36,230 bases of DNA from an uncultured Gammaproteobacteria bacterium (GCA_964590345.1 CAZPVP010000006.1:1-36230), one strand, 5' to 3'. Shown: positions 1 through 36,068, counted from the first letter of the stretch. The notes: generated by a model from the sequence alone, not told the origin. Numbers and translations are program-made.

Positions 1-66
1 AGTTATTTCTTAGATATCTTCTATTATACCTGTGACTTTTGCTTTATTATACCCTATTACAAGGCG

Positions 67-19608: not shown

Positions 19609-19614
19609 AATTTT

Positions 19615-20334: not shown

Positions 20335-20335
20335 A

Positions 20336-21982
20336 ATGAAATTTTTTAAGCAATTATTTTGTAACAATGCTTTTTTTGTTATTTTTGTTTCTTTAATTTT
20401 AATTTTGCTGACCGAAGCAGTTTTTGTTTATGGTCATTGGATTAATGATCACGACCATTATTACACAGGCTTACATATATTAACAACTATTGACGGTCCT
20501 GTTTATTTTTCTTACATAGAACAAGTTAAAGCAGGCCATTTTTTATTTAAAGATTTATTTAATAGTAATGATAATTTTAGAGTATTTAATCCTTTTTGGC
20601 TGGCAGTCGGATTAATCGCAAAAATTTTAAAAATCTCAGCGCCAGTGGCTATTGAGATTTTTCGAATTATTTTAATCCCGATTTTTTTATTTGTTTTATT
20701 TAAAATAATCAATTTGTTTTTATCAGCCAGTGATTTTAAAAAGAAGGTTTGTTATTTGTATTCTTTGATACTTTCTGGTTTAGGTTATATATTTTTTCCT
20801 TTTATTTTGCTGCAAAATTTGACACCCGATTTTAAAAAAAATCCTTTAGACCTTTGGGCTTATGAAGCAAATAATTTTATGACCTTGCGCTATTATCCTC
20901 ATGCTATTGCTTCAACATTTTTAATTTTATTAATTTTTTATTTTTTTTATCAGGCTATCGAGGAAAAAGGTTATAAAAAGAGCATTTTAGCAGGAGTTTT
21001 AGCTTTGTTTTTGTTTAGTTTTCATCCTTTTCATGTCCCATTGATTTATGTTATTCCTTTGGTTTATATTTTAGTTTTATTTTTTTTAGAGAAAAAATTC
21101 AATTTTAATTGGCTAAAAAAATATTTGTTATTAGTTTTGATGTCTTTACCAAGTGTAATATATTATTTTTATTTACTGATCTTTAATAAAAATATTTTGC
21201 TAAAAGCCTTGCAAAATGATTGTTTAATGCCCAGCCCGTTTTTATTTGTAATAAGCTTTAGCCCGGCTATTTTTTTAGCTTTTTATTATATTTTTTTAAT
21301 TATCAAAAAAAAACAATATAGCCATGCCAATATTTTTTTAATTGTTTGGTTTTTGACAAATATAATTTTGGTTTACGGACCTTATAATATTCAAAGGAGA
21401 TTGTTAGAGGGTTTTATTGTGCCTTTGTCAATCTTGTCTTTTTACACTTTAAATTTAATTGCCAAGAAATTAAGGGAAACAGGGATATTTTTCAAAATAG
21501 TTTTAATTATTTCAGCTGCTTTTTTCTTGTCGCTATCTAATTTATTTATTTATACTCAAGAATTCAAATTTTTAAAAAAAGCTTTAGCAGGCGAAGGTAG
21601 ACATGCTCATATGGTTTATGTTAGTGATCAAATTAAAGAAGGTTTAGATTGGTATGAAAAAAAAGCTGATGAGCAAGATATAATTTTATCTTCTTATAAA
21701 ATTGGCAATATTATCCCTGCTTTGACGGGTAAAAAGGTCTATTTGGGTCATCCGATTGAAACAGTCGGCTTTATGGCAAAAAAAAAGGCCATGGAAAACT
21801 TTTTTGCATCCGACTACTTTGATCGAGAAGAAAGAGTCTTTTTAAGAGAAAATAAAATAACTTATATATTTTATTCTGATTTTGAAAAAAAAATAGGCGA
21901 CTTTGAGCCTGGCCAAAAGGATTATTTAGAAAATGTTTTTAATAATCAATCAGTTATTATTTATAAAATTAAATCAGATTAA
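20336..21982 (+). CDS. polytopic membrane protein, probable GT-C glycosyltransferase
   Basis: IDGPVYFSYIEQ loop, FHPF, QRR, C-terminal IPALTGKKVYLGH..ET and FLRENKITYIF; paralogue of the next gene. Confidence 0.65.
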   Translation: MKFFKQLFCNNAFFVIFVSLILILLTEAVFVYGHWINDHDHYYTGLHILTTIDGPVYFSYIEQVKAGHFLFKDLFNSNDNFRVFNPFWLAVGLIAKILKISAPVAIEIFRIILIPIFLFVLFKIINLFLSASDFKKKVCYLYSLILSGLGYIFFPFILLQNLTPDFKKNPLDLWAYEANNFMTLRYYPHAIASTFLILLIFYFFYQAIEEKGYKKSILAGVLALFLFSFHPFHVPLIYVIPLVYILVLFFLEKKFNFNWLKKYLLLVLMSLPSVIYYFYLLIFNKNILLKALQNDCLMPSPFLFVISFSPAIFLAFYYIFLIIKKKQYSHANIFLIVWFLTNIILVYGPYNIQRRLLEGFIVPLSILSFYTLNLIAKKLRETGIFFKIVLIISAAFFLSLSNLFIYTQEFKFLKKALAGEGRHAHMVYVSDQIKEGLDWYEKKADEQDIILSSYKIGNIIPALTGKKVYLGHPIETVGFMAKKKAMENFFASDYFDREERVFLRENKITYIFYSDFEKKIGDFEPGQKDYLENVFNNQSVIIYKIKSD

Positions 21983-23616
21983 TGGCTTATCAAAAATTAA
22001 CAAAAAAAGAGATTAGATTTATTTTGTTAGTGAGTTTAATTTTAATTATTATCACTTGCTTGCCGTATCTTTATGGTTATTTGATTAAGGGTGACTTGTT
22101 TTATGTTGGTTCTTATGTTTTTTCATCCGGGGATAATCCGGTTTATTTTTCTTTTATTGAACAAATAAAACAAGGCAATTTTTTACTGGATAATTTATTT
22201 ACTAATGAAACAGAACAAATAAAATTATTTAATCCGTTTTGGTTAATAATTGGTTTAATTGCCAAAATTTTTAAATTCTCAACGTTTTTTGCTTATCAAT
22301 TGTTTAGAATTATTTTAATTCCTATATTTTTATTTGTTTTATATAAATTTATTAGTTTTTTTCTAAGCGATTATAGTTTGCTTAGAAAAAAACTTTGTTT
22401 TTTATATTCGCTTTTTGCTTCTGGCTTGGGGATTTTTTCAGTACTTTTAAGCGGCGAAATGTCTTATAGTAATTATCATAATTTATCCATGGATTTATGG
22501 GTACCAGAAGCGAGTAATTTTTTAATTTTATCTTATTCCCCTCATTTTATTGCTTCCATTATTCTGATTATTTTAACTTTTTATTTTTTCTTTAGAGCAG
22601 TAGAAGAAAAAAATTTAAAATTAGGGCTTGGGGCTGGTATGTCTGCTTTATTATTGTTTTCTTTTCATCCATTTTTTGTGCCAACAATTTATTCCATTAC
22701 TTTTATTTATTTAATTTTTTTATTTTTAATAAATAAAAAAATAGAATTTAAAGCGGTATTAAATTATTTAGTTTTAGTAGTTGTTTCTCTGCCGGCAGTT
22801 TTTTATTATTTTTATGTAGTTTTAATTGATTCTTTTTTGCAGATAAAAGCATGGCAAAATATTTGCTTAACCCCCGGTGGTATGATTTTTTTTATCAGCT
22901 ATGGTTTTGGTTTGTTTTTCGCTGTTTTTGCTATAGGCTATTTAATAAAGAGAAAAAAAATGTCTAATAAAAACTTATTTTTAATCATTTGGTTTTGCGT
23001 TTCAATTATTTTAATTTATGCTCCTTTTAATTTTCAGCGCCGGTTAACTGAAGGATTTCAAATCCCCTTAACGATTTTGGCTTTTATTGGCTTGGTTATT
23101 AGTTATGATTTTTTAAAGATTAAAAGCAAGCTTTTTAAAAATTTAAACCTTTGGGGAATTTTGCCGGTTTTTATCTTGTTGTTTTGTTTTTCTAATGTTA
23201 TTGTTTATTTTTGGAATTTTAAATTTTTAAATTTAAAATTAGAGCCTATTTATATGCAAAAAGAAATAAAGCAGGCATTAGATTGGTATAAAGATAAAAC
23301 AGGTTTTGAAGAAACGATTTTGGCTGGCAGAATAAATGCTAATCTTTTGCCTGGGATTATTGGCAGGCGAGTTTATTTGGGACATTGGGTGGAAACAATT
23401 AATTATACTGATAAAATGATTAAATTGAATCATTTTTTTAAAGATAATCAAGATGATTTGGCTAAAAAAGAGTTTTTAAAAGAAAATAAAATAGATTATA
23501 TGTTATATTCAGAGGAAGAAAAAAAAATGGGCGATTATGACCCATCAGCAAAAGATTATTTAAAAGAGGTTTATAAAAATGAAAAAGTCAGTATTTATAA
23601 AGTTAGTTTAGATTGA
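21982..23616 (+). CDS. polytopic membrane protein, probable GT-C glycosyltransferase (tandem paralogue)
   Basis: GDNPVYFSFIEQ, FNPFW, FHPF, QRR, VYLGHWVET, FLKENKIDY; start overlaps the previous stop (TAATG). Confidence 0.65.
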   Translation: MAYQKLTKKEIRFILLVSLILIIITCLPYLYGYLIKGDLFYVGSYVFSSGDNPVYFSFIEQIKQGNFLLDNLFTNETEQIKLFNPFWLIIGLIAKIFKFSTFFAYQLFRIILIPIFLFVLYKFISFFLSDYSLLRKKLCFLYSLFASGLGIFSVLLSGEMSYSNYHNLSMDLWVPEASNFLILSYSPHFIASIILIILTFYFFFRAVEEKNLKLGLGAGMSALLLFSFHPFFVPTIYSITFIYLIFLFLINKKIEFKAVLNYLVLVVVSLPAVFYYFYVVLIDSFLQIKAWQNICLTPGGMIFFISYGFGLFFAVFAIGYLIKRKKMSNKNLFLIIWFCVSIILIYAPFNFQRRLTEGFQIPLTILAFIGLVISYDFLKIKSKLFKNLNLWGILPVFILLFCFSNVIVYFWNFKFLNLKLEPIYMQKEIKQALDWYKDKTGFEETILAGRINANLLPGIIGRRVYLGHWVETINYTDKMIKLNHFFKDNQDDLAKKEFLKENKIDYMLYSEEEKKMGDYDPSAKDYLKEVYKNEKVSIYKVSLD

Positions 23617-25483
23617 TTTGGCTAATTATTTCTTTTTTATCTAAAACATTTTTAATACTGCCAAGATCATCTAATTCTAAACCGCCAGCCAAATCAAGAA
23701 TTTTAATTTTTTCTAATTGTGGTAATGCGAAAAAATTAATTTTTACGACTTGATCTTTTTGCCATTCGCTGGTGGGATAAAGCCCATAACCCAAAGGATA
23801 AACCCTCTCATTAATTTTGATAAAATAATTTTTTTCAATATCGGATAAAACCTTAAAATATAATGAAGTAATATTTTTTTCTTCATTAGAGCCAAGAAAT
23901 AATATCTCTTGGTTTAATTTCTGCTCTTTAGCTTGTTTTATTTCTGGCAGATTATTTTTATAAATTTGATAAAGCGGAATTTTATTTGGTTGATGATCTT
24001 TTTGCCACAAAGCCAAATTTTGTTTAATTGTCTTTAATTGATAATTTTTTTCTTTTATTATCTTATTTAAATTATTATCACCCTGATAATAATAATCACT
24101 TATCCTGTTTTCATATTGAAGATGGAAAGTAAAGAAATCAGTAAAATTAATTAAAATAAAAGGCGTTTTATCTGGGATTTTATAATCACCGGCACCGTAT
24201 TGTTGCCGCCCTAAAAAAAGATAATTTAAAGAATAAATTTGAGGGCGGGAAGATAGGTTGGTAATTAAATCATAACTTGCAACTAAAGCAGCCTTTTTAG
24301 GAATTTGTTTAATAAATTCATTTTTTAATTTAAGTTCCTGATAATCAATTTTTGAAATTTTTTGGACGAAAGCAATAAAAGGGCCTAAGATTAATAAATT
24401 ATAAATTAAACCAATAATAATTATTAAATAAAAAAGGTCTTTGTTTTTTTTAAAAAAATTTAAAAATTTTTGATTAACTGTCAAGGCTTTTAAGGAAAAA
24501 ATGGCAGCTAAGCTAAAGGCAATTAAAAGAATTGTGCCATAATGTGTTCTTAAAATTAATTCACCAGAAGGCAGGCCTAAAATTATTTGCATAAACATGC
24601 CAAGGCATAAAAGCAGATATTTGGGACGGTAAAAGGGGATAAATAAGAAAACTAAGCCAAAACCAAGAATTAATTCCAAGTTGCCCAAGTAAAAAATATG
24701 TTCTAAAACCAAGTGTGGCTTAAGAAAAAAATTAATAAAGATTTCTTTAGGATTTTCACCTAGCCATTGGTAGTAAATGAAAAATTTATAAGTTTGAGCC
24801 GATGAATAATGAGCTATGATTTTTAAAGCAGTGAAAAAATAAATTAGGCTAAGAAACAGGGGTGTTAAAATCCATTTAAATCTCTTTTTGTCTAAAATAG
24901 CTATAAATCCAAACATAAAAATAATAAAAGAAACATCTTCGCGAATAAGCAAGCTTAAAATTATTAAAACCAAAAAAGGCTTAAATTGATTGTTTTGATA
25001 AAAATAAAATGTCCAGGCAATAAAAAAAGGAACAAAAGCCAAGAAATGAAATTCGTATAAGTTAATATTAAGAGTAACTGGATTAAAAAGATACAAACCA
25101 ATGATTAATAAAGTTTGCCAAGGAGTTAAATGTTTTTTAGCAATTAAATATAAAGGAATGGCAGTTAAGCCAAGGAATAGAGATTGCAAAAAAAGCAGAG
25201 TTACAGGCGATTTGCAAAGAGAATAAAAAGGCACAAGAAAAAAGAGCAACGGTGTAAAATGATCACCTAAATAAGAAGTGGGGTGAATAGTAAATTGAAA
25301 AAGATTGCCCAATGAAGAATTATAAAAAACTTGATTAAAAATAGCTAAATCCAGGCCATTATATTGAAAAGTTTGATATTTAAACAGGCAAATTCCAAAA
25401 CTAATTACAAGATAGGCAATTATTAAAATTGTTAAGATTTTAGCTAATTTTAGCCAATTTAAGTTTTTGAAATAATTAAGCAT
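23603..25483 (-). CDS. DUF2079-family membrane protein (GT-C-like)
   Basis: GLDLAIFNQ, GDHFTP, TLLFLQ, YEFH, IRED, HY motifs. Confidence 0.8.
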   Translation of the reverse strand: MLNYFKNLNWLKLAKILTILIIAYLVISFGICLFKYQTFQYNGLDLAIFNQVFYNSSLGNLFQFTIHPTSYLGDHFTPLLFFLVPFYSLCKSPVTLLFLQSLFLGLTAIPLYLIAKKHLTPWQTLLIIGLYLFNPVTLNINLYEFHFLAFVPFFIAWTFYFYQNNQFKPFLVLIILSLLIREDVSFIIFMFGFIAILDKKRFKWILTPLFLSLIYFFTALKIIAHYSSAQTYKFFIYYQWLGENPKEIFINFFLKPHLVLEHIFYLGNLELILGFGLVFLFIPFYRPKYLLLCLGMFMQIILGLPSGELILRTHYGTILLIAFSLAAIFSLKALTVNQKFLNFFKKNKDLFYLIIIIGLIYNLLILGPFIAFVQKISKIDYQELKLKNEFIKQIPKKAALVASYDLITNLSSRPQIYSLNYLFLGRQQYGAGDYKIPDKTPFILINFTDFFTFHLQYENRISDYYYQGDNNLNKIIKEKNYQLKTIKQNLALWQKDHQPNKIPLYQIYKNNLPEIKQAKEQKLNQEILFLGSNEEKNITSLYFKVLSDIEKNYFIKINERVYPLGYGLYPTSEWQKDQVVKINFFALPQLEKIKILDLAGGLELDDLGSIKNVLDKKEIISQINLN

Positions 25484-25534
25484 AAGTTATTAGTATTTTA
25501 AGCTATTTTTAAGAATAAATAAAGAGGCAAGCTC

Positions 25535-25563
25535 TTGACAAATTACTGCAAATATGCTATAAT
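25535..25563 (+). promoter_or_regulatory. consensus sigma70 promoter
   Basis: TTGACA 25535-25540, 17-nt spacer ending in tgc, TATAAT 25558-25563. Confidence 0.8.
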
Positions 25564-25633
25564 GGAATAATAAAGTAAAAAAGGTCTTTAAACTAAAAAA
25601 AAATAAAATCAAGCTTAAGAAAGGAGAACGCTG

Positions 25634-26182
25634 ATGAGAAGAGTATTGGCAGTAATAGTTATGTTTGTCTTGGGGCTGACGCTTTCCGCTTGTCCTGTGA
25701 AATACCAGGATGGTGATCGTAAAATGCTGGCTTGGAATCAGAAAGCCATGGAAACAGTGGTCAACGCACCGACACCGGATGTGCCACAGGGCGCTCAAGA
25801 TTTGGCCACCACTTTTCAAGCGGTCAATCCTCATGCTAATTTCCGCATCCATGACGGAAATGTGGAATATGAGGGCACGCCACCCCGGCCAGGTGATGGG
25901 TTACATTACGGTGCTCTGATTAACGGTTCGACCTTTAATGTAACAACAATCGCCGTCTATAACTCCATGAATGGCATCGAATTTAAACATTCGGCTTTTA
26001 AGCCAGGTTCAAAATTGGAGTTAAAACTCAAGCCCGGTAATTACATCGTTCACATTTGGAAAAAGGGCGAAACAAGCCCTCGTAAATTTACCATCATAAT
26101 TGATACAGGAACAGCTGATGTGTCCTACGACGGGCACGATTACGATTTTTACTGGCTTTTCACCGATCAAGATTTGAGATAG
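25634..26182 (+). CDS. putative lipoprotein, hypothetical
   Basis: Signal peptide with lipobox LSAC; RBS aaggag; visibly higher GC than its neighbours; beta-sandwich-like C terminus (LKPGNY). Confidence 0.82.
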   Translation: MRRVLAVIVMFVLGLTLSACPVKYQDGDRKMLAWNQKAMETVVNAPTPDVPQGAQDLATTFQAVNPHANFRIHDGNVEYEGTPPRPGDGLHYGALINGSTFNVTTIAVYNSMNGIEFKHSAFKPGSKLELKLKPGNYIVHIWKKGETSPRKFTIIIDTGTADVSYDGHDYDFYWLFTDQDLR

Positions 26183-26201
26183 TAAAATATTTTTGTAAAA
26201 T

Positions 26202-26233
26202 AAAACCACCTGAAAAAAAGGTGGTCTTTTTTT
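26202..26233. terminator. bidirectional terminator
   Basis: aaaaccacct-gaaaaaa-aggtggt-ctttttt between the lipoprotein gene and the pilin array. Confidence 0.7.
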
Positions 26234-26249
26234 ATTGAAATAATTAAAA

Positions 26250-26705
26250 TTAAGGGGCACCTTCGCCTGGCAATGGCGGGCTGTCATCCTGAGGAGGTGA
26301 ATCGCTTGGTGTTCCAGTGCCAGTGCCGCTAGTGCCGCCAAGTGTTCTAAGAATAAAATTGGTTAAAGAGTAAGAAATAAGGATAATAACAAAGCCAATA
26401 ACAGCAGTGACTATTGTGCGTTTGGCCTTTTTTAGTTTTTCTGGCTCACCAGCCGCTGTCATATACAGATAGCCCCCATAAATTATAACAGCTAAAAAAA
26501 CAATGCCTAAAAATGTCAAAACTGTTTTAATAATCAAAGCAGCTATCTCAGGCGGACTTTCCGGTGTCCCGCCATAAATCTTCTGACCATAACTTTTGAC
26601 TTCTTGAGAAACTGAAGTGGCCAAAGCATTTTCAATACAAAAAACACTGCTTATTAAAATTAAGCTAAAAAATAAAAAGAAAAACAACTGTTTTTTATAT
26701 CGCAT
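26250..26705 (-). CDS. VirB2/TrbC-like (T4SS_pilin-type) pilin with a Gly/Thr/Pro-rich tail
   Basis: Signal peptide; IIYGGYLYMTAAGEPEKLKKAKRTIVTAVIG..ILISY. Confidence 0.85.
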   Translation of the reverse strand: MRYKKQLFFFLFFSLILISSVFCIENALATSVSQEVKSYGQKIYGGTPESPPEIAALIIKTVLTFLGIVFLAVIIYGGYLYMTAAGEPEKLKKAKRTIVTAVIGFVIILISYSLTNFILRTLGGTSGTGTGTPSDSPPQDDSPPLPGEGAP

Positions 26706-26716
26706 AAATTATTTAT

Positions 26717-27085
26717 TTATTTGATAAAAATTTTAAAAATAAAGTAAGTAACTGAATAAGCACTTAAAACAATGGCTAAGCCGATAACAGCATAAAGCAA
26801 CAGGTTTTTTGCTTTTTCTATTTTTTCTTTTGCGCCAGCAGAAGTTAAGTAAAGAAAACCAGCGTAAATAATCAAGATAACGAAGAGAATGCCCAAAAAG
26901 GTTAAAAGAGTGTTTATAATCAAAGCTGCTATTGCTTGAGGCGATTGAGGGGAGCCGCCATAAATGCCCTGGCCAAAACTTTGTAAAGGCTGGCTAAAGC
27001 TAATGGCTAAAGCGTTATTGGCCAGCAAAAATATTCCTAAAAATAGCAACAAGATAGCAGTTAGTTTTATTTTTTTGCTAAACAT
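26717..27085 (-). CDS. VirB2/TrbC-like pilin
   Basis: IIYAGFLYLTSAGAKEKIEKAKNLLLYAVIGLAIVLSAY. Confidence 0.85.
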   Translation of the reverse strand: MFSKKIKLTAILLLFLGIFLLANNALAISFSQPLQSFGQGIYGGSPQSPQAIAALIINTLLTFLGILFVILIIYAGFLYLTSAGAKEKIEKAKNLLLYAVIGLAIVLSAYSVTYFIFKIFIK

Positions 27086-27115
27086 GAAATAGATATTTTA
27101 TTATATTAAAAACAG

Positions 27116-27664
27116 CTAACCGCCATAGCCCCAATTATCGCATTCAGCTTGGTGGCTGTTGTAAAAAGTTGTTTGGCTGCAGCAAGTTTCATCAACTCGG
27201 CCGTCATAAACCTGAAAACGATATTCGCAGCAGTTGATGGAATAATAATTATTATGGCTTTCATTTTCACATTCTGGATTTTGTGGGGGGATACCGCCGC
27301 CCGGCGTTTCAAGTCTAAGGGTGATAAAGTAAGTTATAGAATAGCCAGTCATGATAATAATAAGTCCAATTACAGCCGCTGTAAGAGTGTTTCTTCCTTG
27401 CTCAACTTTTTCTTCATTGCCAGCAGCAGTTAAGTAAAGAAAACCGCCATAGATTAATAAGCCCAAGAAGACAACGCCAATTAAAGTTAACAATCCTTTA
27501 ACCAAGCCAGCGGCATAAGCAGATAAGGGTTGAAGCGTCATCTGGGCCTGCGTGCCGGCTTGTTTTAATCCTTCATAAAAAGAGCCGGCTAAAGCAGTAG
27601 AGTTAACTAAAAAAAAGCTAATAATGATAAAAACGATTATTAAGATTAATACATGTTTTTTCAT
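27116..27664 (-). CDS. VirB2/TrbC-like pilin with a C-terminal C-CC-CC-C domain
   Basis: IYGGFLYLTAAGNEEKVEQGRNTLTAAVIG; six-Cys tail. Confidence 0.85.
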   Translation of the reverse strand: MKKHVLILIIVFIIISFFLVNSTALAGSFYEGLKQAGTQAQMTLQPLSAYAAGLVKGLLTLIGVVFLGLLIYGGFLYLTAAGNEEKVEQGRNTLTAAVIGLIIIMTGYSITYFITLRLETPGGGIPPQNPECENESHNNYYSINCCEYRFQVYDGRVDETCCSQTTFYNSHQAECDNWGYGG

Positions 27665-27694
27665 AATTCCATGATTGTTAATAATTCAAAAATG

Positions 27695-28120
27695 TTAAGG
27701 CGTCCATGTCTGTTCATCCTGTCCTGCATCTGTAGATGGAGCAGTCTCAATTGCTTGGCTGATAAAGTAAGTAATTGAATAAGCAGTTATAACAATAGCC
27801 AAGCCAATAACAGCATTGATAATTGTTTTTTTTGCAGCTATAATTTGTTCTTTGTTTCCTTTGGCGATCATCCATTTAAAACCGCCATAAATAAATAAAA
27901 TAAAAAAGCCAACAGAAACCAAGCCTAAAATAGTTTGTATAACATTGATTACAATGGTTGCAATATCAACTCTAGAGACATCTGCACCACCAGCAGTTAT
28001 GTTAAGAAAGTCGTTAAGATCGCTAAAACCAAGAGCAGCCAAGGCATTATTAGCCACCAAAAGGCTTGCTAAAAGGATAATTAGAAAAAAAGAAAAGATT
28101 TTTAATTTTTTATTTAGCAT
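27695..28120 (-). CDS. VirB2/TrbC-like pilin
   Basis: IYGGFKWMIAKGNKEQIIAAKKTIINAVIG..ITAY. Confidence 0.85.
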   Translation of the reverse strand: MLNKKLKIFSFFLIILLASLLVANNALAALGFSDLNDFLNITAGGADVSRVDIATIVINVIQTILGLVSVGFFILFIYGGFKWMIAKGNKEQIIAAKKTIINAVIGLAIVITAYSITYFISQAIETAPSTDAGQDEQTWTP

Positions 28121-28143
28121 TCCAATTTATTAAAAAATATTGA

Positions 28144-28608
28144 TTAATTCTGATCTGCTTGTCCTTTTGTAGCATCCTCATCAGTGTCGGAAATGTCAGT
28201 GTCAATACCGCCAGTCTTTTCTTCTTCACCACCGCCACCGCCTTGAAAAGCTCTGCTGATTATCATGCTAATGGAAAAAGCAGCAATAACAATGAAAATG
28301 CCCAAGGTGGCATAAATCATGGCTTTTTTAGCTTTGTCAACTTTTTCTTGATGACCACCGGCAGACATCCAGGTAATGCCGCCATAAATAAATAAAAGAA
28401 CAAAAAGACCGCCAGCAAAACCCATTAAGAGCCTGATTGCAGCGGCAACAATAGGAATGTAATCTTTTGTTTTAAGCTGAGCGCCTCCGGCCGTGCTTTC
28501 ATAAAAGCCAGTAGCATCGCTAAAGCTGTAAGCCAAAGCTTGGCCTGGCTGGATAGCTAAAATACTAAGCAAAGTCAATAAAATTATAAAAAAAAATATT
28601 TTTTTCAT
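28144..28608 (-). CDS. VirB2/TrbC-like pilin with an acidic Gly-rich tail
   Basis: IYGGITWMSAGGHQEKVDKAKKAMIYATLG; tail GGGGGEEE...DTDISDTDED. Confidence 0.85.
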   Translation of the reverse strand: MKKIFFFIILLTLLSILAIQPGQALAYSFSDATGFYESTAGGAQLKTKDYIPIVAAAIRLLMGFAGGLFVLLFIYGGITWMSAGGHQEKVDKAKKAMIYATLGIFIVIAAFSISMIISRAFQGGGGGEEEKTGGIDTDISDTDEDATKGQADQN

Positions 28609-28626
28609 TTTTCATTTTTTAATTTT

Positions 28627-29019
28627 TTATTGAAAGACGCTAAAGACCATATAAGTAATGGCATAAGCTCCGCCCAAAACCATAGCGCCAACAATAGCCC
28701 AAATTATTATGTTCTTACCTTTAGTTACTTTTTCTTGATTGCCGGCTGAAGTTAGAATAATAATCCCGCCGTAAACCACTAAAAACAAAAAAATTGAGCC
28801 GCTTAATGCTAAAGCAGCACCGGCAAATCTGCCCAAAAATTCAGGAATTTTTTCAGCGCTGCCATATTCTGTTAATCCTGCTTCTCCTGCTGTTTCACTA
28901 AGGCCAAAGTCATCAGCTGCTGCATTATTTAAGGGAATTAATGAAAAGGCAGTTATTAGTGAAATAATAATTAGCAATATGGTTATTTTATTAAAATAAT
29001 TGTTATTTTTTATTTGCAT
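28627..29019 (-). CDS. VirB2/TrbC-like pilin
   Basis: VYGGIIILTSAGNQEKVTKGKNIIIWAIVG...AY. Confidence 0.85.
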   Translation of the reverse strand: MQIKNNNYFNKITILLIIISLITAFSLIPLNNAAADDFGLSETAGEAGLTEYGSAEKIPEFLGRFAGAALALSGSIFLFLVVYGGIIILTSAGNQEKVTKGKNIIIWAIVGAMVLGGAYAITYMVFSVFQ

Positions 29020-29036
29020 AAAAAAGGTTGATTTTA

Positions 29037-29078
29037 AAAATTTTAAGGGTAGGGTTTAAACCCTACCCTTAAAATTTT
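29037..29078. repeat. perfect 42-bp palindrome at the 3' end of the putative major pilin gene
   Basis: aaaattttaagggtagggttt|aaaccctacccttaaaatttt; GTAGGG...CCCTAC core. Confidence 0.8.
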
Positions 29079-29442
29079 AAGTGGCATTAACAATAGACAT
29101 AACAACAAAAGTAGCAATCGCGTAAGCAGTTAGGATGATAATTAAACCGATAATACCGGCAACTAATAGTTGTTTAGCCTTACCAACTTTTTCTTCATTA
29201 CCTGCAGCAGTCATCCATTTAAAGCCGCCTAGCAAAATAATGACCACAGCTACAATACCCAAAAGCCCCATCGCAACATTAATAATACTGGCAATGGTTT
29301 CGCGAATATCTTTTGTTCCTAAACCAGTTGCTGTGCCGTATTTTATGCCGACATCTAACGAGACAGCACCAACCATCTGTGGCAAACCGATAATGCTTAA
29401 AAGGGCCAAAAAGACAACTAAATTGATTAAAAATTTTTTCAT
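29077..29442 (-). CDS. VirB2/TrbC-like pilin, candidate major subunit
   Basis: GLGTKDIRETIASIIN...LGGFKWMTAAGNEEKVGKAK; RBS gaaagg; own promoter and 3' hairpin. Confidence 0.88.
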   Translation of the reverse strand: MKKFLINLVVFLALLSIIGLPQMVGAVSLDVGIKYGTATGLGTKDIRETIASIINVAMGLLGIVAVVIILLGGFKWMTAAGNEEKVGKAKQLLVAGIIGLIIILTAYAIATFVVMSIVNAT

Positions 29443-29625
29443 GATTTTAGACCTTTCTTAATGTAAAGCCTTTAAAGACTAAACATTAAAAAATTAATTA
29501 TTAATTATTTTAATTTCCTGCGCTTAAACAGGTTTACCAAAGCCAAAACAAATTTTGGTTTGGCAATTTTTATTTAAGAAGATATTCTGAAAATAAAATT
29601 TTTAAGTTGCAAATTATTTAAGTAT

Positions 29626-29654
29626 ATTATATAATGTTTCTTTTTTTTAAGCAA
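29626..29654 (-). promoter_or_regulatory. sigma70-type promoter for the 29442 pilin
   Basis: Minus strand TTGCTT-aaaaaaaagaaacatta(17)-TATAAT. Confidence 0.55.
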
Positions 29655-29706
29655 ATAATTGCTGTGATTATTTCATTATTGTTATTTTTTTGCTTGCTGT
29701 TGGAAT

Positions 29707-30072
29707 TTAAGGCCCTCCGGCCAGGCTTTTTATAACAAAGTCAGTCAGCATATAGCTGCCGATTATAGCGATTAAACCAATTGTCGCCCAGATTAGAGTA
29801 TTTTTGCCTTTTTGGATTTTTTCTTCTGCTCCCCCGGAAGTAATCAGAGTAAAGCCGCCATAAACAAACATAAGCAGGGCCAATGAGCCAGTAAAAGTTA
29901 AAACCGCTTTAACAACCCGGCCGATAATAAGATAAACACCTTGTTCGCCAGCAGGGAAGTCACCAAAAGGACTTTCTAATTCTACTTCTGCTTGAGAAAT
30001 ATTAGGAATAATTAAAAAACAAATTAAGATTATAAAAGTTATTAAAAACGTGATTTTGAAAAGTTTTTTCAT
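29707..30072 (-). CDS. VirB2/TrbC-like pilin
   Basis: GSLALLMFVYGGFTLITSGGAEEKIQKGKNTLIWATIG...SY. Confidence 0.85.
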   Translation of the reverse strand: MKKLFKITFLITFIILICFLIIPNISQAEVELESPFGDFPAGEQGVYLIIGRVVKAVLTFTGSLALLMFVYGGFTLITSGGAEEKIQKGKNTLIWATIGLIAIIGSYMLTDFVIKSLAGGP

Positions 30073-30165
30073 GGGGTTTTTTAAGATTATTAAACTATAA
30101 TTAAGGACGGATAAAATAGTTTTTTAAGAATAGTGGCACTAAACAGCTTGATTGATTTTATGGTA

Positions 30166-30783
30166 CTATTTACAACATTTAGGCTTAATAATACAATTAT
30201 GAGGGTCCGGAATTTCATCGCCAGCAGCGCACTCTTCAGCACATTCGCCGCCTAGTGCCTCACAAGTAGGTAAACAGCATTTTGGTTTTGGATCGCTGCA
30301 TTGTTCACCTTGGGCCTGTGTCGTAAACTCATTAGTATTGCAGGATTCATTCTGCGCAATGCATAGGCCTTGTCTTTCTGTTGGTAAATCAGGACGGCAG
30401 ACATCGCCGGTTGTTGTTCCTCCTGGAGTTCCGCCTTCGCCAGTTATACCTTTAATAACAAAATCAACTGTCATATAGCTGCCAATAACCAGAGCAAAGC
30501 CTATAATTGCCCAAATTAATATTTTTTTGCCTTTAGTTACAGGCTCTTGATTGCCGTGGGAAGTCAACAAAATCATTCCGCCATAAACAACAAAAAGCAA
30601 AGCAACAGAGCCAACAACAGTTAAAAGCGATTTGATTACATTACCGATTAAAACTTGCATTGTTTCGGATCTTGGATCTAAACCTAAAGGATTAAGATCC
30701 CCAAGATTTATGGCTAAAGCATTATTGATAATAAAAAATGATAATATAACAAGAATAAAGATAATTGATAAATATTTTTTCAT
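30166..30783 (-). CDS. VirB2/TrbC-like pilin with two tandem six-Cys modules
   Basis: GSVALLFVVYGGMILLTSHGNQEPVTKGK; tail with 12 Cys, each module ending in KPKCC. Confidence 0.85.
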   Translation of the reverse strand: MKKYLSIIFILVILSFFIINNALAINLGDLNPLGLDPRSETMQVLIGNVIKSLLTVVGSVALLFVVYGGMILLTSHGNQEPVTKGKKILIWAIIGFALVIGSYMTVDFVIKGITGEGGTPGGTTTGDVCRPDLPTERQGLCIAQNESCNTNEFTTQAQGEQCSDPKPKCCLPTCEALGGECAEECAAGDEIPDPHNCIIKPKCCK

Positions 30784-30794
30784 AATTATAGCTT

Positions 30795-31271
30795 TTAATA
30801 AATATCTTTATTAAAATTTACTTGGTCAAGAATGACTACTTTTTCAGCACTAGGAGCAAAACTGCACTCTAAAGAAGTATCCCAGTTCCATTCTTCGCCA
30901 GTTACAACATTAATAAGAGTCATAACAACAAAATAAGCCAATACAACAATCATAAAACCAATAATAGAATTGATAAAAATATCTCTGCCTTTTTTAACTT
31001 TTCCTGAATCGCCGCCCGAAGTCAGCCAGACTAAGCCGCCATAAACAAAAAATAAAAGAATAATACTGCCAACAATGCCCTGAAGAAAAATACCAACATT
31101 GATTGCTATCTGAACCATATCACAGACCGAACAATCGCCTTCTGTCCGGCAGCCACCGCTAACATCTTGCCAAATGGGGCTTTGGGCAACAGCAACATGA
31201 AAAGTAAGCAGCAAAAAACTAAAAGATAGCAATAGTATAATGTAAATTTTATATTTTTTTAGCCAATTCAT
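30795..31271 (-). CDS. VirB2/TrbC-like pilin with an N-terminal C-x4-C-x2-C motif
   Basis: CRTEGDCSVCD; VYGGLVWLTSGGDSGKVKKGR; ATG 31271 preferred over 31316, which overlaps the SBP gene. Confidence 0.85.
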   Translation of the reverse strand: MNWLKKYKIYIILLLSFSFLLLTFHVAVAQSPIWQDVSGGCRTEGDCSVCDMVQIAINVGIFLQGIVGSIILLFFVYGGLVWLTSGGDSGKVKKGRDIFINSIIGFMIVVLAYFVVMTLINVVTGEEWNWDTSLECSFAPSAEKVVILDQVNFNKDIY

Positions 31272-31278
31272 ATTTGTT

Positions 31279-32652
31279 TTATAAAGTTTGGTTGATTTTA
31301 GTTGCAGCTGTTTCAATGATTTCTTCAGTTGATTTAAGGCCCAAGCGATTTTCTTTAATCATTGTTTTAAAAATTTCTTCAGCAGCTCGAGCATTTTTTC
31401 CTTTGTACCAGCTTTTAGCAGTTATTAGCTGGCTAGCAAAAGGCGCTAATTCTAGATCATCCAGCTGTTCATTGATCAATTCTCTTAAAGCCGTTGGCTT
31501 CCTGGATGCTTCTATAAATTTTTTATTATTTTCTACATCTGTAGTTATAAATGAGATAAAATCCCATGCCTCATCAATATCTTGACTTTTTTTAGAAACG
31601 GTTTCCACCCAATAATTAGCAAAATTAACAGGCTTGCCAATTTGTGGCACTTCAGCAATATCAAAATTTAATTTAGGCGCTTGAGCTTTGATTGTTGGCA
31701 GATGATAAGCATAGCCAAAAAAGAAGGCGGTTTGCCCGGACATGAAAGCTTCTAAAGAATTCGGCATTTTGGTATTCCAAGTATAAACTTGTTTAGCCGG
31801 CGAAGCAAAGCTTGTATAAAAATTAAGCGCTTCAACAGAGGGTTTGACTTCCCGAGTGTATCCTTCTGGTACTTCATTAAAAGTAGCAAAACCGCGAGCG
31901 TCAGTCATTTGAGTGCCGTTTTGCAGCATTAAAAGGCTTAAAATATCTGTTGAACGGTTAATATTGTCAGCTGTGCCAATTGCTGCGCCAGCTTGAATAA
32001 TGTTACCTTTTTGATCTTGTTTGGTTAGCTGAACAACCTGATTTTTGAACTGATCCCAGGTTTTTGGCGGTGCAGTAATGCCGACATTATTTAATAAATC
32101 GCGATTATAAAATAATGCTAAAGTATCAATACTCAAGGGTAAACCATAAATTTGACTATTAATAACTTGGTTATCAAAAACAACATCAGGGAAAAGAATT
32201 TTTAAATCCCTTAAACTAATAGTTTTTTTTGTCCGCAATTCAGTATAAGTTTCTTTTTTAACCGTACCTTTTTCTATTTGATATTCCACAGTCGTTGTTG
32301 GGGGCAAGGGCACAATTAAGGGTTGATATTCCCGCAGCCATGTTGTATGAATAGAAAAAATATCAGGTCCGCGATCTTCAGCGAATGCTCTTAATAATTC
32401 GTCTTCATATTCTTGAGCAGTAAAATTGCGATAACGAATATTAATATGAGGATGGAGCGACTGGTATTGTTCAACTAAAGGTGAAATATTAAAACTGTCC
32501 TCATGAACTTTCCAGTATTCCAAAGTAATCGGCTTTGGCTTACCCGGCGTTAAGCCTTCAGGGGGGCCACCACATTTAAAACCACCAGTAACAATGATTA
32601 AGATGATGATTAAAAAAGGGGTTATTTTTTTGTTTTTAGTTATTTTGAGCAT
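31279..32652 (-). CDS. extracellular solute-binding lipoprotein (carbohydrate ABC family 1-like)
   Basis: Lipobox-like GGFKC; GPDIFSI, IYGLPLSIDTLALFYNRDL, PPKTW, AFMSGQTAF, AWDFISF. Confidence 0.9.
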   Translation of the reverse strand: MLKITKNKKITPFLIIILIIVTGGFKCGGPPEGLTPGKPKPITLEYWKVHEDSFNISPLVEQYQSLHPHINIRYRNFTAQEYEDELLRAFAEDRGPDIFSIHTTWLREYQPLIVPLPPTTTVEYQIEKGTVKKETYTELRTKKTISLRDLKILFPDVVFDNQVINSQIYGLPLSIDTLALFYNRDLLNNVGITAPPKTWDQFKNQVVQLTKQDQKGNIIQAGAAIGTADNINRSTDILSLLMLQNGTQMTDARGFATFNEVPEGYTREVKPSVEALNFYTSFASPAKQVYTWNTKMPNSLEAFMSGQTAFFFGYAYHLPTIKAQAPKLNFDIAEVPQIGKPVNFANYWVETVSKKSQDIDEAWDFISFITTDVENNKKFIEASRKPTALRELINEQLDDLELAPFASQLITAKSWYKGKNARAAEEIFKTMIKENRLGLKSTEEIIETAATKINQTL

Positions 32653-32723
32653 ATTTTATATATGAATTATAACAAATAAATTAAATAAATCCTATAAAAA
32701 TTAAGCTTTATAAGCTTTAATTG

Positions 32724-33593
32724 TTAAATATTTAAATTTTTGATATATTTTTTTATTTCTTGGTTTATATCGTCATGTTTTAAAGCAAAATCGAGATTTG
32801 CTTTGAGCCAGCCGAATTTGGAGCCGGTATCATAATAAGCGCCTTCAACCAAGGCAGCATAGATAGCGCGTTGCTTGGAAAGATTGAAAATTGCATCAAC
32901 CAGCCATAATTCATTGCCTTGGCCGATTTTAGTCTCGGTTAAAGCTTCAAAAATATCAGGCGTTAAAATATAAGCGCCTAAAGTGCCAATGCGGCTGGGC
33001 GCTTTGGCTGGACCAGGTTTTTCAATAATAGTTTCAACTTGATAAACATTTTTTTCGACTTGTAAGCCCTTGATTACGCCATGTTTTTTTGTGCCTTCTT
33101 CGTCAATTTTTATTGCAGTTAAAATCGGATCCTGATATTTGTCAAAAACTTTTATCAATTGTTTTAGGCGTGGATTTTTTTGATTAACAAAAAGATCATC
33201 GCCAAAAATTACAGCAAAAGGTTCGTTGCCAATAATTTTTTTAGCATTTAAAACTGGCGTGCCATTGCCATAAGGCCCTTTTTGCCTGATATAAATAAAA
33301 TTAGCCATAGTGGCAATATCTTTGATTTCCTGGCGAAGCTTGTCTTTGCCTTGTTTTTTGAGCCAGCTTTGTAGTTCATAATTATAGTCAAAATGATCTT
33401 CAATTGCTCTTTTAGCCGGACCAGTTACTAAAATTATATCTTCAATGCCCGAAGCCACAGCTTCTTCAACAATGTATTGGATAACAGGCTTGTCAATGAT
33501 TAGCAGCATTTCTTTGGGAGAAGCTTTGGTGGCTGGTAAAAAGCGAGTGCCATAACCTGCCACAGGAATAACTGCTTTTCTGATTTTTGGCAT
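32724..33593 (-). CDS. galU: UTP--glucose-1-phosphate uridylyltransferase
   Basis: KAVIPVAGYGTRFLPATKASPKEML, IEDHFD, EKP, YDTGSK; ATG at 33593. Confidence 0.93.
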   Translation of the reverse strand: MPKIRKAVIPVAGYGTRFLPATKASPKEMLLIIDKPVIQYIVEEAVASGIEDIILVTGPAKRAIEDHFDYNYELQSWLKKQGKDKLRQEIKDIATMANFIYIRQKGPYGNGTPVLNAKKIIGNEPFAVIFGDDLFVNQKNPRLKQLIKVFDKYQDPILTAIKIDEEGTKKHGVIKGLQVEKNVYQVETIIEKPGPAKAPSRIGTLGAYILTPDIFEALTETKIGQGNELWLVDAIFNLSKQRAIYAALVEGAYYDTGSKFGWLKANLDFALKHDDINQEIKKYIKNLNI

Positions 33594-33691
33594 ATTCAAA
33601 TTAGTGCTTTTTTATATCTTTAATAATAGCATAAATTTGGCTTGAGATAAATAAAAAAGCAGCATTGTGGCAAAAAATTCATGTAATTTAT

Positions 33692-33749: not shown

Positions 33750-36068
33750 TTACCGATCAACTCGGGTATAGGTTAAAAATTCCTTTTTAGCATTTATATA
33801 AATTTCTTGTTGGTCATCAAAAAGTTTGTAAACATGAGGATAAGTATTTGCTTTCCAGTATGGCTTGATTTTAAATTCAAAAGTAATTTCTTCACCAGGA
33901 GCAATTTCTTGCCATGATTTCTCAATTGTTTTGTTGTCATGCCAAGACCAGTCGCGAAACCAGGAGTTTGTATAATCAATATCATAACTTTTTAAGATAG
34001 GATTGTCCCATGTTTTACTGCCGGTATTTTTAAAAGTTAATTTGACAGCAGGGCGCCAGTTAGTTTTAACAGCAACTGGCAGCGTGTTCTCAGTAATTTG
34101 AGCCGCATAAGGGGAAATAACTTCAATTGTTTGATCAAATTTATATAATTTTTGATCATTGTAGAGCAAAGTAAGATTATGAGGGAAGGGGGCTACGAGA
34201 TTTGGCGCTTTTAATTTAAATTCAAAAGTAGCTAATGAATTAGGCGCAATGGTTTTTTCTTTAGGCGGGATCAAAGCATATTCAGAGTACCAGGAATTAT
34301 TTCTAAAAGGTGAAATATGCTCTTTTTCATAAATAATATGCAGTTTTAATTTGTCCTGATCCCAGTTTTGATTGCCAGTATTTTTAAACTGCATTAAGAT
34401 TGGTTGCAATTTGTCGGCTGGCATTTGTCTTGGAAAAGTCGATTGAACTGGCACCCCATTGTAAATAGGGGAATTTGTCTTATTTTCTAATTGGCAAGTT
34501 GTACAAGGGATTTTGTTAATAGTAATTGAAAAGTCACTGTTAGGAAAATAACCCTTATTTTGCCAAGCCAAGGTAAAGTCTTTGCTTATTGTTTTTTTGT
34601 TGATAGGCGGAGACAAGGTTAATCTGAATTTGCCGATTTCTCCCGGATAAACATTACCTTCTAATAGTTTATAGCCAGCCAAAGGTTCGTTATCAGTATT
34701 TGTGTTTAAGGCAATATGGACAGAGCCAATTTGAGCCAGCTTATTTTTAATACTGTCATCAGTAATGAATAAGCCAGCGTCTTCATAGCCACGCCAGACT
34801 GCTTGGCCAGTATTTTTAAATTCCACAATCACATCAGCCGTTTTGGTTTCTTCAATATCAAGCTCCTTAGTGCTTATTCTGACAAATTGAGCTGAAGCAG
34901 GCAAAGGTTTTTGATAGCCCCCTAATTCTTGCAAAAGATTATAAGCTAATTGTCGGGTTTGCGGCAATTTATCATAGATTAAATCACCAGGGCAAGCTGT
35001 ATTGCCGACATCGTTGTGGCCAATAACATTAGGTAATATTTGCCCGTGAAATTCGCTTTGGCCTAGTGGATCAATGTTAAATTCACGCGATTTTTGGGCG
35101 ATTAGCTTATTAAGAGCTGTTTTACTATTTTCAGTTAATTTATCCGGAGTATTACAGTTTGAACCCTGTAAATCGCTTTTTTGGCTTTGGTAACAGCCTA
35201 AGATAGCAATACCAATAGTGTTTCGGTTTCGCATATAAGCATGACCGCCAACAATACCATCACCTCCGGCGCGGCCTTCATAGATATTACCCTTTGAATC
35301 AATTAAATAATTATAACCAATATCACCCCAGCCTCGAGCAACTGCGTGCCAATGTTGGATTGCACGAATGGTAGCCATGGGATCAGTGTTAGCGTTTTCA
35401 CCAGCTGTATGATGAATAATAAATTTTTTTGGTAAATAATATTCTTCTTCCCATAAATCTTGACCTTTTTCATCAAATTTATAATTTGGATTAGCGCCCC
35501 ATTGAGCACGAGAAATAATATTTAAAGTGCTATTAGTTCGCGAACTAATTTTATAGCTAAGTTTATGTCCTTTTGTTGTGTTTAAATAAGCAAATTCTAA
35601 ATTTTTCAAAGCAGGTTTTTTTGTGTGAGGATCAAAAATAATTTTATACTGAAAAGTATCAGTTAATTTAGTAGGAATCATTTGGCTGGCTAAAATAAAA
35701 TCACTATTATTTTTGCCATTAATATCATCGTCAAGGCGGATTTTTAACCAATCTGTCCAGCTTTCATTTAAAAATTTAACATAAATATCAAAATTTTGTC
35801 CTAAATTAACCCCATTTTCTGCTTGCCATTTGACAAATAAGGCATTAAAAGGGAAATCAGTTCTTAAAACGGGTGATTTGATTTGATTTTCGCTAATATT
35901 AGCAGAAACAAAAAAGGAACCGGATTGAGTTGGTTCTTTAATAATAATTCGGCCTTCTTTAATTTCAGTAGAAGAATTTGCCTTAACTAAAGCAAAAATT
36001 AGGATAATTGACCAAAATAAGACAAAAATAACAATAAAGTTTGTTTTTATTTTGTGTTTGTAATTCAT
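33750..36068 (-). CDS. secreted/anchored N-acetylmuramoyl-L-alanine amidase (Amidase_2/PGRP-like) with three C-terminal Ig-like repeats
   Basis: IISRAQWGA, IIHHTAG, WGDIGYNY, IYEGRAGG, GHNDV...TACPG zinc ligands; FKNTG...W repeated three times (NBR1/Ig-like). Confidence 0.9.
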   Translation of the reverse strand: MNYKHKIKTNFIVIFVLFWSIILIFALVKANSSTEIKEGRIIIKEPTQSGSFFVSANISENQIKSPVLRTDFPFNALFVKWQAENGVNLGQNFDIYVKFLNESWTDWLKIRLDDDINGKNNSDFILASQMIPTKLTDTFQYKIIFDPHTKKPALKNLEFAYLNTTKGHKLSYKISSRTNSTLNIISRAQWGANPNYKFDEKGQDLWEEEYYLPKKFIIHHTAGENANTDPMATIRAIQHWHAVARGWGDIGYNYLIDSKGNIYEGRAGGDGIVGGHAYMRNRNTIGIAILGCYQSQKSDLQGSNCNTPDKLTENSKTALNKLIAQKSREFNIDPLGQSEFHGQILPNVIGHNDVGNTACPGDLIYDKLPQTRQLAYNLLQELGGYQKPLPASAQFVRISTKELDIEETKTADVIVEFKNTGQAVWRGYEDAGLFITDDSIKNKLAQIGSVHIALNTNTDNEPLAGYKLLEGNVYPGEIGKFRLTLSPPINKKTISKDFTLAWQNKGYFPNSDFSITINKIPCTTCQLENKTNSPIYNGVPVQSTFPRQMPADKLQPILMQFKNTGNQNWDQDKLKLHIIYEKEHISPFRNNSWYSEYALIPPKEKTIAPNSLATFEFKLKAPNLVAPFPHNLTLLYNDQKLYKFDQTIEVISPYAAQITENTLPVAVKTNWRPAVKLTFKNTGSKTWDNPILKSYDIDYTNSWFRDWSWHDNKTIEKSWQEIAPGEEITFEFKIKPYWKANTYPHVYKLFDDQQEIYINAKKEFLTYTRVDR

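Follow-up and report, generated by a model that had tools for sequence, protein, structure and literature searches.

What do ten divergent pilin-like genes build when they stand in tandem on a single strand, with no secretion machinery in sight? The question is posed by a 36,230-base contig (GCA_964590345.1 CAZPVP010000006.1, titled uncultured Gammaproteobacteria bacterium; contig C6 of the assembly), which as a whole is the window analyzed here and which belongs to a 1.21 Mb genome of 68 contigs rated 95% complete. Ten co-oriented minus-strand open reading frames (ORFs) of 121 to 205 codons fill positions 26250 through 31271. We consider it fairly probable that they encode VirB2-like subunits of a chromosomal, nonconjugative type IV secretion system (T4SS) of Patescibacteria, and that these subunits, in three tiers, make up a surface polymer dependent on that system.

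All ten proteins match the T4SS_pilin family, PF18895, at 30.5 to 44.9 bits, above the gathering cut-off of 26.6 bits, so the array is not a chance assembly. Every N terminus has a Lys-rich n-region, a hydrophobic stretch, and an Ala-x-Ala-like site, as in a Sec-type signal peptide; two more hydrophobic segments follow, and three Gly residues are invariant across the ten proteins with the spacing G-x7-G-x17-G. The preliminary description of this DNA had reported ten co-oriented pilin-like genes with a signal peptide and a shared core, ending in variable tails (none, Pro/Thr-rich, acidic, or Cys-rich), and both points hold. Pairwise identity ranges from 20.4 to 47.5% with a mean of 30.7% (45 pairs, alignment A1), and the highest value is that of g1 and its closest paralog g2. 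The class III motif of type IV pilins, G/(F,M)-(T,S)-L-x-E, is absent from the first 60 residues of all ten. Genes are numbered by rising coordinate, so that minus-strand transcription runs from g10 to g1; the features are as follows, in the order of transcription.

32724 to 33599, minus strand: NTP_transferase (sugar-nucleotidyltransferase) gene, just upstream of the solute-binding protein gene that it neighbors (PF00483, 92.3 bits)
31279 to 32652, minus strand: solute-binding protein (SBP) gene of the SBP_bac_1 family, head of the operon; 457 amino acids (aa), lipoprotein-like N terminus (PF01547, 95.2 bits)
30795 to 31271, minus strand: g10, lead pilin, 158 aa, upstream class; Cys loop before helix 1 and 4-Cys ectodomain (PF18895, 40.8 bits)
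30166 to 30783, minus strand: g9, 205 aa, upstream class; 88-aa tail with 12 Cys (PF18895, 37.9 bits)
29707 to 30072, minus strand: g8, 121 aa, upstream class, without a tail (PF18895, 35.2 bits)
29626 to 29654, minus strand: promoter-like site TTGCTT-17-TATAAT, 183 nucleotides (nt) before the g7 start codon
29077 to 29442, minus strand: g7, candidate major pilin, 121 aa, without a tail (PF18895, 44.9 bits, the best in the array)
29037 to 29078, minus strand: hairpin resembling an intrinsic terminator, directly after g7; perfect 21+21 nt inverted repeat, then a U run
28627 to 29019, minus strand: g6, 130 aa, first of the downstream class, without a tail (PF18895, 33.2 bits)
28144 to 28608, minus strand: g5, 154 aa, downstream class; tail Gly-rich, then acidic (PF18895, 32.2 bits)
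27695 to 28120, minus strand: g4, 141 aa, downstream class; short polar tail (PF18895, 31.7 bits)
27116 to 27664, minus strand: g3, 182 aa, downstream class; conserved 6-Cys C-terminal knob (PF18895, 34.4 bits)
26717 to 27085, minus strand: g2, 122 aa, downstream class, without a tail (PF18895, 30.5 bits; PF04956, 23.6 bits, subthreshold)
26250 to 26705, minus strand: g1, 151 aa, last pilin; Gly/Thr/Pro-rich tail (PF18895, 36 bits)
26196 to 26225, no strand assigned: terminator-like hairpin ACCACC-loop-GGTGGT closing the operon, with T runs on both strands; common to the convergent gene at 25634 to 26182

The genes are closely packed. The spacer before g7 measures 264 nt and that after it 57 nt, while the others span 11 to 93 nt; the tight spacers of 11 to 30 nt point to co-transcription of the paralogs. 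At the head of the array, an alternative TTG start for g10 at 31316 would run into the upstream SBP gene. An Rfam scan of positions 25500 to 33000 gave nothing at the gathering score, its miRNA-like matches being the terminator hairpin.

The loop between the two mature helices is Lys/Arg-rich in the nine genes where a pattern based on the glycine spacing found the right register; the pattern misplaces g10, whose loop was taken from alignment A1 instead. With a basic loop, the positive-inside rule predicts that both ends of each mature pilin should face outward and the loop should lie inside. The signal peptides would be cleaved to yield these mature forms, as judged from their sequences. The PF18895 architecture, a Sec signal peptide ahead of two hydrophobic helices with a short charged loop between them, is present both in the hydropathy profiles and in the models of g7 and g3. 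In the AlphaFold2 model of g7 (53 sequences; mean predicted local distance difference test [pLDDT] score 77.5), a signal helix (residues 2 through 26) and a disordered mature N terminus precede a helical hairpin (46 through 78 and 83 through 119). What is added to the hairpin differs from gene to gene: g2, g6, g7, and g8 end without a tail, the tail of g1 is rich in Gly, Thr, Pro, and Ser, that of g4 is short and polar, that of g5 is Gly-rich and then acidic, and those of g3 and g9 contain 6 and 12 Cys, respectively. The 4 Cys of g10 form a cluster before helix 1 plus one in the tail.

Arrays of this kind have been described. A survey based on PF18895 and PF04956 (Quinonero-Coronel et al. 2025; PMC12102498) reports 441 arrays of 2 to 11 pilin genes in 383 Patescibacteria assemblies, with an average identity of 25% and a maximum of 54%, and T4SS genes often near dnaA. 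By its definition (at least 2 tandem pilins, at most 1 gene between them, low identity) the present locus is an array, and with ten genes, 31% mean identity, and a distance of ∼19 kb from dnaA it fits the published description; it is an already published kind of VirB2-like Patescibacteria pilin array. The window carries dnaA (4993 to 6378) and dnaN (6692 to 7858), and the separation of this pair (4993 to 7858) from the pilin operon, ∼19 kb, matches the published remark that T4SS genes lie near the origin. Published arrays and this one are alike in their tandem, co-oriented, divergent pilins, in a genome encoding VirB4, a TrsD-like protein, and PrgI, in the lack of a relaxase-type context, and in proximity to dnaA. 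In Southlakia epibionticum ML1, predicted pilin genes lie within an essential T4SS cluster, SEML1_0006-0019 (PMC10633639), whereas here the array and virB4 are on different contigs. A 2025 FEMS review describes such pilins as conserved in structure and divergent in sequence (PMC12857230). Compared with the VirB2, TrbC, and TraA pilins of T-, P-, and F-pili, the array proteins share a long Sec signal, two hydrophobic helices, a short basic loop, and small size (g7 is ∼95 aa when mature), and their similarity to PF04956 is weak; those systems have one pilin, whereas here there are ten paralogs, many with extracellular tails, in a single-membrane host. The preliminary description had called such expansions typical of candidate phyla radiation genomes and their function unresolved, which understates a literature in which arrays are described and one is essential (PMC12102498, PMC10633639).

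The closest homologs of g7 are named Uhrbacteria and Magasanikbacteria, in agreement with a Magasanikiibacteriota-type placement; in all, g7 has 2736 homologs, the best of them 79 to 80% identical. The T4SS_pilin family occurs in 31 of 31 related genomes, with 10 to 18 modules in each genome of the same family. Records that bear the operon (L028, L030, L031, L033, L034, L036, L098, and others) are titled Gammaproteobacteria, Acutalibacteraceae, Vicinamibacterales, Binatia, Udaeobacter, or Nanoarchaeia; these Patescibacteria-type operons under odd titles look like mislabeled or contaminated metagenome bins.

To see which features of the array recur, we fetched 80 loci with relatives of g7 and scanned their ORFs with a hidden Markov model from alignment A2, which yielded 608 pilin ORFs, all co-oriented with the g7 ortholog of their locus. 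ORF starts in these loci are the longest possible, which makes spacer lengths and N-terminal extensions approximate. The pilin run that contains the g7 ortholog comprises 4 to 15 genes in 77 of the 80 loci, most commonly 6 or 8. Since the loci were picked through g7, the sample is biased, and related genomes are not independent samples; the conservation comparison was therefore repeated with 13 family genomes selected by taxonomy (14 with this one), where comparisons are free of the selection through g7.

Gene g7 looks like the major subunit of the array: it is tail-less and more conserved than any other member, and it is flanked by a promoter-like site and a terminator-like hairpin of its own, both of which recur in related loci. 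The hairpin after it has a 19-bp stem followed by a U run (−26.4 kcal/mol, z = −5.9) and lies inside the 57-nt spacer. In the set of 80 loci, median spacers of 95 nt before and 105 nt after the g7 ortholog contrast with 8 nt for 366 other spacers. Over the 73 nt after the stop codon, the median folding energy is −24.4 kcal/mol for g7 orthologs and −9.0 kcal/mol for other pilin genes; a hairpin of −15 kcal/mol or stronger follows 67 of 80 g7 orthologs as against 124 of 523 other pilin genes. Of 76 usable loci, 33 have a looser promoter pattern, TTGnnn-16..18-TAnnAT, ahead of the g7 ortholog; mononucleotide shuffles give an expectation of 7.6. C-terminal tails of at least 20 aa are found in 5 of 80 g7-type genes, none of them Cys-rich, compared with 110 of 361 genes of the downstream class. 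The best identities of g7 in the 13 family genomes are 79, 79, 69, 65, 65, 65, 64, 63, 63, 59, 58, 55, and 50% (median 64); those of g6 are 64, 63, 63, 63, 62, 60, 59, 56, 55, 53, 52, 50, and 47% (median 59). By this comparison of sequences g7 is the most conserved array member, with a small margin over g6. The idea of one major and several minor subunits, proposed in the preliminary description, thereby gains comparative evidence: a tail-less, most conserved gene with its own promoter-like site and terminator, both in this genome and in relatives. Between the promoter-like site and the g7 start lies a 183-nt stretch (29443 to 29625, minus strand) that folds at −38 kcal/mol (z = −3.7 against shuffles) and has no match to an Rfam family; it could be a regulatory leader of g7.

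On either side of g7 the minor genes fall into two classes, as far as sequence similarity can tell: g8 through g10 upstream and g1 through g6 downstream. Among pilins at positions −4 to −1, 118 of 138 have their best match to g8, g9, or g10, as against 1 of 362 at positions +1 to +12. N-terminal extensions are common in the upstream class: 61 of 139 members have one of 30 aa or more, and 95 of the 139 place at least two Cys ahead of helix 1. Tails with four or more Cys occur in 74 of 361 members of the downstream class. Among co-linear loci, the closest one (L027) keeps the order g10, g9, g7, g6, g5, g4, g3, g2/g1. All 13 family genomes have a one-to-one ortholog of g6 directly after the g7 ortholog (47 to 64% identity), and 10 of the 13 have a clear ortholog of g10 (40 to 51% identity). 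Lead pilins behind an SBP gene share the consensus P-x-C-x3-G-x-C-x-L-x-D just before helix 1; the corresponding stretch of g10 is GGCRTEGDCSVCD.

The tails are in part less exchangeable than the term "swappable" in the preliminary description implies. Tails are confined to the minor classes and vary much, as that term would have it, but the g3-type Cys tail is, from its alignments and its predicted model, a conserved orthologous domain. Thirty-five alignments extend 25 residues or more into this tail, and the strongest has 50% identity over 181 residues; Cys145, Cys146, and Cys161 are invariant or nearly so in 25 sequences; and residues ∼130 through 178 form a small helical knob in the AlphaFold2 model (pLDDT 90 to 95). 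For the g9 tail, a search of its region against 5.8 billion proteins found, among 6 candidates, the g9 protein itself alone, and the ESM Atlas gave no usable match; 38 weak BLAST alignments (27 to 40%) nonetheless extend into it in related loci, and "unique" would be too strong a word. Over the core, paralog DNA is 60 to 78% identical. As substrates for switching or gene conversion among the paralogs, we found no long identical stretch and no perfect inverted repeat except the g7 terminator hairpin; a recombination switch was rejected as the paralogs are without long identical repeats.

The preliminary description had also stated that no secretion machinery adjoins the array. This is true of the window, where Pfam scans of 20 other large ORFs gave no secretion ATPase, but not of the genome, in which a search for a VirB4-like ATPase led to contig C1. 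A VirB4-like protein of 647 aa (C1:130729-132672) matches P-loop_TraG (95.7 bits), AAA_10 (40.4 bits), and DUF87 (30.8 bits); just upstream is a TrsD-like 217-aa ORF with weak similarity to the N-terminal part of TraC (C1:132694-133347), and the contig also encodes a 139-aa PrgI (VirB3-like) protein (C1:133447-133866, 40.4 bits). VirB4 with a TrsD-like protein and PrgI/VirB3, the combination that defines a Patescibacteria-type T4SS at the level of the genome, is thus present at one locus. PF03135 (CagE_TrbE_VirB), which was also tried, has no match in the genome; VirB4 was found through AAA_10 and P-loop_TraG instead. A 930-aa membrane protein on C1 has a weak TrbL/VirB6 match (16 bits, E = 0.004). 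Beside the VirB4 locus are comF-, recG-, and radA-like ORFs, recognized by eye from their N termini only; a neighborhood of this type is described for Magasanikiibacteriota (PMC12102498). Two PilB-type (T2SSE) ATPases are encoded on contigs C15 and C25, away from the array.

The genome holds 16 T4SS_pilin modules, all above the cut-off: ten in the array and six elsewhere, namely a solitary 122-aa gene on C7, fusions of 392, 382, 696, and 3771 aa on C1, and a 377-aa fusion on C3. In comparisons among the modules of this genome, g7 gives 118 bits with the solitary C7 gene (57% identity) and 111, 107, and 86 bits with the N termini of the 3771-, 696-, and 382-aa proteins, respectively, but 44 to 62 bits with its nine neighbors in the array. 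On these scores the module fused to the giant adhesins is of the g7, or major, type. The trio of 3771-, 696-, and 382-aa sizes recurs in relatives, whose fusions reach ∼3700 aa. The solitary gene (C7:331-699; L001) is a second major-type pilin and, at 50.9 bits, the best PF18895 match in the genome; it lies 330 nt from a contig end, which cuts off its neighborhood on that side. A DsbA-like thioredoxin gene directly precedes the 392-aa fusion (C1:119019-120946; L021:3020-4947). An extracytoplasmic disulfide oxidase would suit a family with so many Cys-rich ectodomains.

The operon is headed by a gene missing from the preliminary description, that of the SBP, which ends 7 nt upstream of g10. Among 49 orthologs its Cys27 never varies and stands in a lipobox-like GFGC context, and its closest solved relatives are sugar- or oligosaccharide-binding proteins of ATP-binding cassette (ABC) importers (best 4qrz, E = 7e-29). 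Of the 80 related loci, 59 have an SBP homolog and 50 an NTP_transferase homolog. Loci were taken as evaluable when 1500 nt or more of sequence preceded the first array gene; 67 qualified, and in 49 of these a co-oriented SBP homolog immediately precedes the array across a spacer of −8 to 188 nt. In 56 of the 59 loci with an SBP homolog some pilin gene lies right behind it, a count that includes pairs several kilobases from an array starting with the g7 type. By coordinates, the SBP gene adjoins the g10 ortholog in 10 of 13 family relatives. This genome, and 14 of 14 of the family, has exactly one SBP_bac_1 gene. No BPD_transp_1 permease (PF00528) was found in this 95%-complete genome; one is absent from 11 of 14 family genomes, the other three encoding it elsewhere, and present in 14 of 14 control genomes. 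The SBP accordingly has the domain of an ABC importer component but no cognate permease. Given its adjacency to the array, its status as the sole SBP_bac_1 gene, and the missing permease, it looks like a component of the operon rather than part of an importer; it probably has the SBP fold without belonging to a classical importer. Folds of this type serve also as receptors and adhesins without transport. Complex prediction for SBP (28 through 457) with g10 (30 through 158) gave a score of 0.00, which speaks neither for nor against binding.

Taken together as a mechanism, these parts would work as follows. Each pilin would be exported by Sec, cleaved at its Ala-x-Ala-type site, and left as a helical hairpin in the membrane, its basic loop on the inner face and both termini on the outer. 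The VirB4-like, TrsD-like, PrgI, and VirB6-like machinery of C1 would then pull these hairpins out of the membrane and assemble them as a pilus or stalk. The bulk building block would be g7, whose transcription would start at a promoter of its own and for the most part stop at the hairpin, limiting read-through into g6 through g1; read-through, together with transcription from the SBP end, would supply both minor classes in lower amounts. The N-terminal Cys loops and C-terminal tails of the minor classes may then face outward, decorate or cap the structure, and give it its surface or tip properties, while the giant adhesins probably join the same lattice through their g7-type module. The membrane-tethered SBP would most likely be an accessory of the apparatus that recognizes or captures carbohydrate at the host interface.

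The predicted regulation has parallels elsewhere. In chaperone-usher and type IV pilus operons (papA, fimA, pilA), a terminator or attenuator after the major gene sets the ratio of subunits. Those operons are alike in having a major gene with strong signals of its own and a hairpin that limits read-through; they differ in that their proteins and assembly machines are unrelated, and here the major gene sits mid-operon with minor genes on both sides.

Several observations weigh against this reading. None of the ten proteins reaches the PF04956 (TrbC/VirB2) cut-off of 27.9 bits: the scores are 23.6 bits for g2 (E = 5.9e-5), 18.2 for g1, and 15.9 for g4, and the other seven have no match at E = 0.1 or better. 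The "VirB2/TrbC-like" label of the preliminary description is thus upheld by PF18895 in ten of ten genes and not by PF04956, where the best score is 23.6 bits, although a precomputed PF04956 match is present on some homologs of g7 in the database. PF02534, the VirD4-type coupling protein, has no match in the genome, and the array is on a different contig from virB4, so that the two are coupled by genome content only. The promoter and the terminator of g7 are predictions from sequence, and genome by genome the identity of g7 is higher than that of g6 in 8 cases, equal in 4, and lower in 1 (n = 13). A two-helix hairpin is too simple for fold searches to discriminate a pilin from other hairpins: Foldseek of the g7 model against the PDB gave nothing at E = 0.001 or better (top, ATP synthase subunit c, E = 0.8), VIA-align against 48,161 chains gave generic helical hairpins only, for example Snf7/CHMP4 at Z ∼10, and a profile of alignment A2 against PDB sequences found no pilin, the sole match (E = 0.99) being one of chance. 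The literature examined describes no pilus of this type in any Patescibacterium, and the FEMS review grants only a "potential to elaborate conjugative pili" (PMC12857230).

Some of these points also suit hairpins that never polymerize but act, independently of a T4SS, as membrane anchors displaying variable ectodomains. Many members are indeed fusions with the hairpin before large extracellular domains (377 to 3771 aa here), the array is unlinked to virB4, and fold searches cannot tell a pilin from any membrane hairpin. Yet g2, g6, g7, and g8 are tail-less and have nothing to display; conservation is highest in the tail-less g7 type, whose expression signals are those of an abundant structural protein; and the family is defined by homology to T4SS pilins, with those of S. 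epibionticum lying inside an essential T4SS cluster. We regard pure anchoring as unlikely. Nor do we put much weight on a repertoire for antigenic or host-range variation in which one alternative subunit is used at a time, an idea offered in the survey (PMC12102498) and proposed for the VirB2 paralogs of Bartonella and Anaplasma. The low identity of the paralogs (20 to 48%) and their variable tails speak for it, but gene order and class are conserved across genera, the classes do not mix, and g6 is one-to-one in 13 of 13 genomes; the array moreover offers no recombination substrates, with core DNA 60 to 78% identical and tight spacers of 11 to 30 nt. This makes such variation very improbable.

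A different alternative takes the SBP as its starting point. The array might be an uptake device in which the SBP passes host glycans or nutrients to a pilin channel that replaces an ABC permease. To our knowledge, no T4SS imports small solutes. The SBP is nevertheless linked to the array (49 of 67 evaluable loci, with a pilin behind it in 56 of 59 SBP loci), it is the one SBP_bac_1 protein in 14 of 14 genomes, the permease is absent from 11 of 14 and present in 14 of 14 controls, its closest solved relatives bind sugars or oligosaccharides, and a PNAS perspective raises import by the T4SS (PMC11665869). On the other side, contact between SBP and pilin is without evidence, three family genomes do encode permeases, elsewhere, and SBP folds double as receptors and adhesins without transport; we give uptake a slim chance. 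In a concrete form, the SBP would dock on the Cys-loop lead pilin of a VirB2-like tube made mostly of g7 and studded with adhesin-carrying subunits, and the tube would capture and import host glycans or other building blocks. This is a long shot, but such an inward-working tube, if true, would explain both the essentiality of the Patescibacteria T4SS and its lack of coupling protein and relaxase.

The T4SS-dependent surface polymer remains the reading we favor, and it bears on a wider question. Epibiotic growth requires the Patescibacteria T4SS in the single species examined (PMC11665869, PMC10633639), the function of this system is called "completely unknown" in the PNAS perspective, where import is raised as a possible role (PMC11665869), and a conjugative-type pilus in a single-membrane bacterium is treated as an open question in the FEMS review (PMC12857230). 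The window does not settle the question of a pilus; it gives a conserved list of parts, namely a g7-type main subunit, likely low-copy surface or tip genes, giant adhesins with the major-type module, and a transporter-less sugar-binding protein that travels with the array. The grammar of this operon (a permease-less SBP followed by a lead pilin, a major gene with its own terminator set between two minor classes, and a major-type module found also in giant adhesins) is absent from the literature searched. Published array descriptions, in their text as distinct from their supplements, mention neither an SBP at the head nor a split into a major and two minor classes nor an adhesin-shared module; the journal text of the survey, again apart from its supplements, contains no mention of solute- or substrate-binding proteins or ABC (PMC12102498), and our literature search returned no paper that joins solute-binding protein, Patescibacteria, and VirB2.

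Beyond the operon, the window also carries a PBP1-type synthase, ruvC, and glycosyltransferase-related genes. A 772-aa Amidase_2 (N-acetylmuramoyl-L-alanine amidase) protein is encoded two genes upstream of the SBP gene (33750 to 36068, minus strand). It was considered as a stand-in for VirB1 or a part of the operon and rejected, being conserved at that place in only 2 of the 80 loci. Convergent with g1, and sharing the terminator hairpin with it, is a 182-aa lipoprotein-like ORF with an LSAC lipobox (25634 to 26182, plus strand), which has no Pfam match and no homolog in any of the 80 related loci. Farther on are three plus-strand ORFs of ∼545 aa (17971 to 19608, 20336 to 21982, and 21982 to 23616) without a Pfam match at E = 0.001 or better; the second and third both match one ORF of the co-linear locus L027, with 59% and 38% identity, respectively. 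Their neighbors encode a GT2 glycosyltransferase and a DUF2079 membrane protein (19615 to 20334 and 23603 to 25483), and the region from 17971 to 25483 looks like a surface-glycan or wall-polymer cluster beside the pilin operon. Among the 80 related loci, 14 have DUF2079 behind the array.

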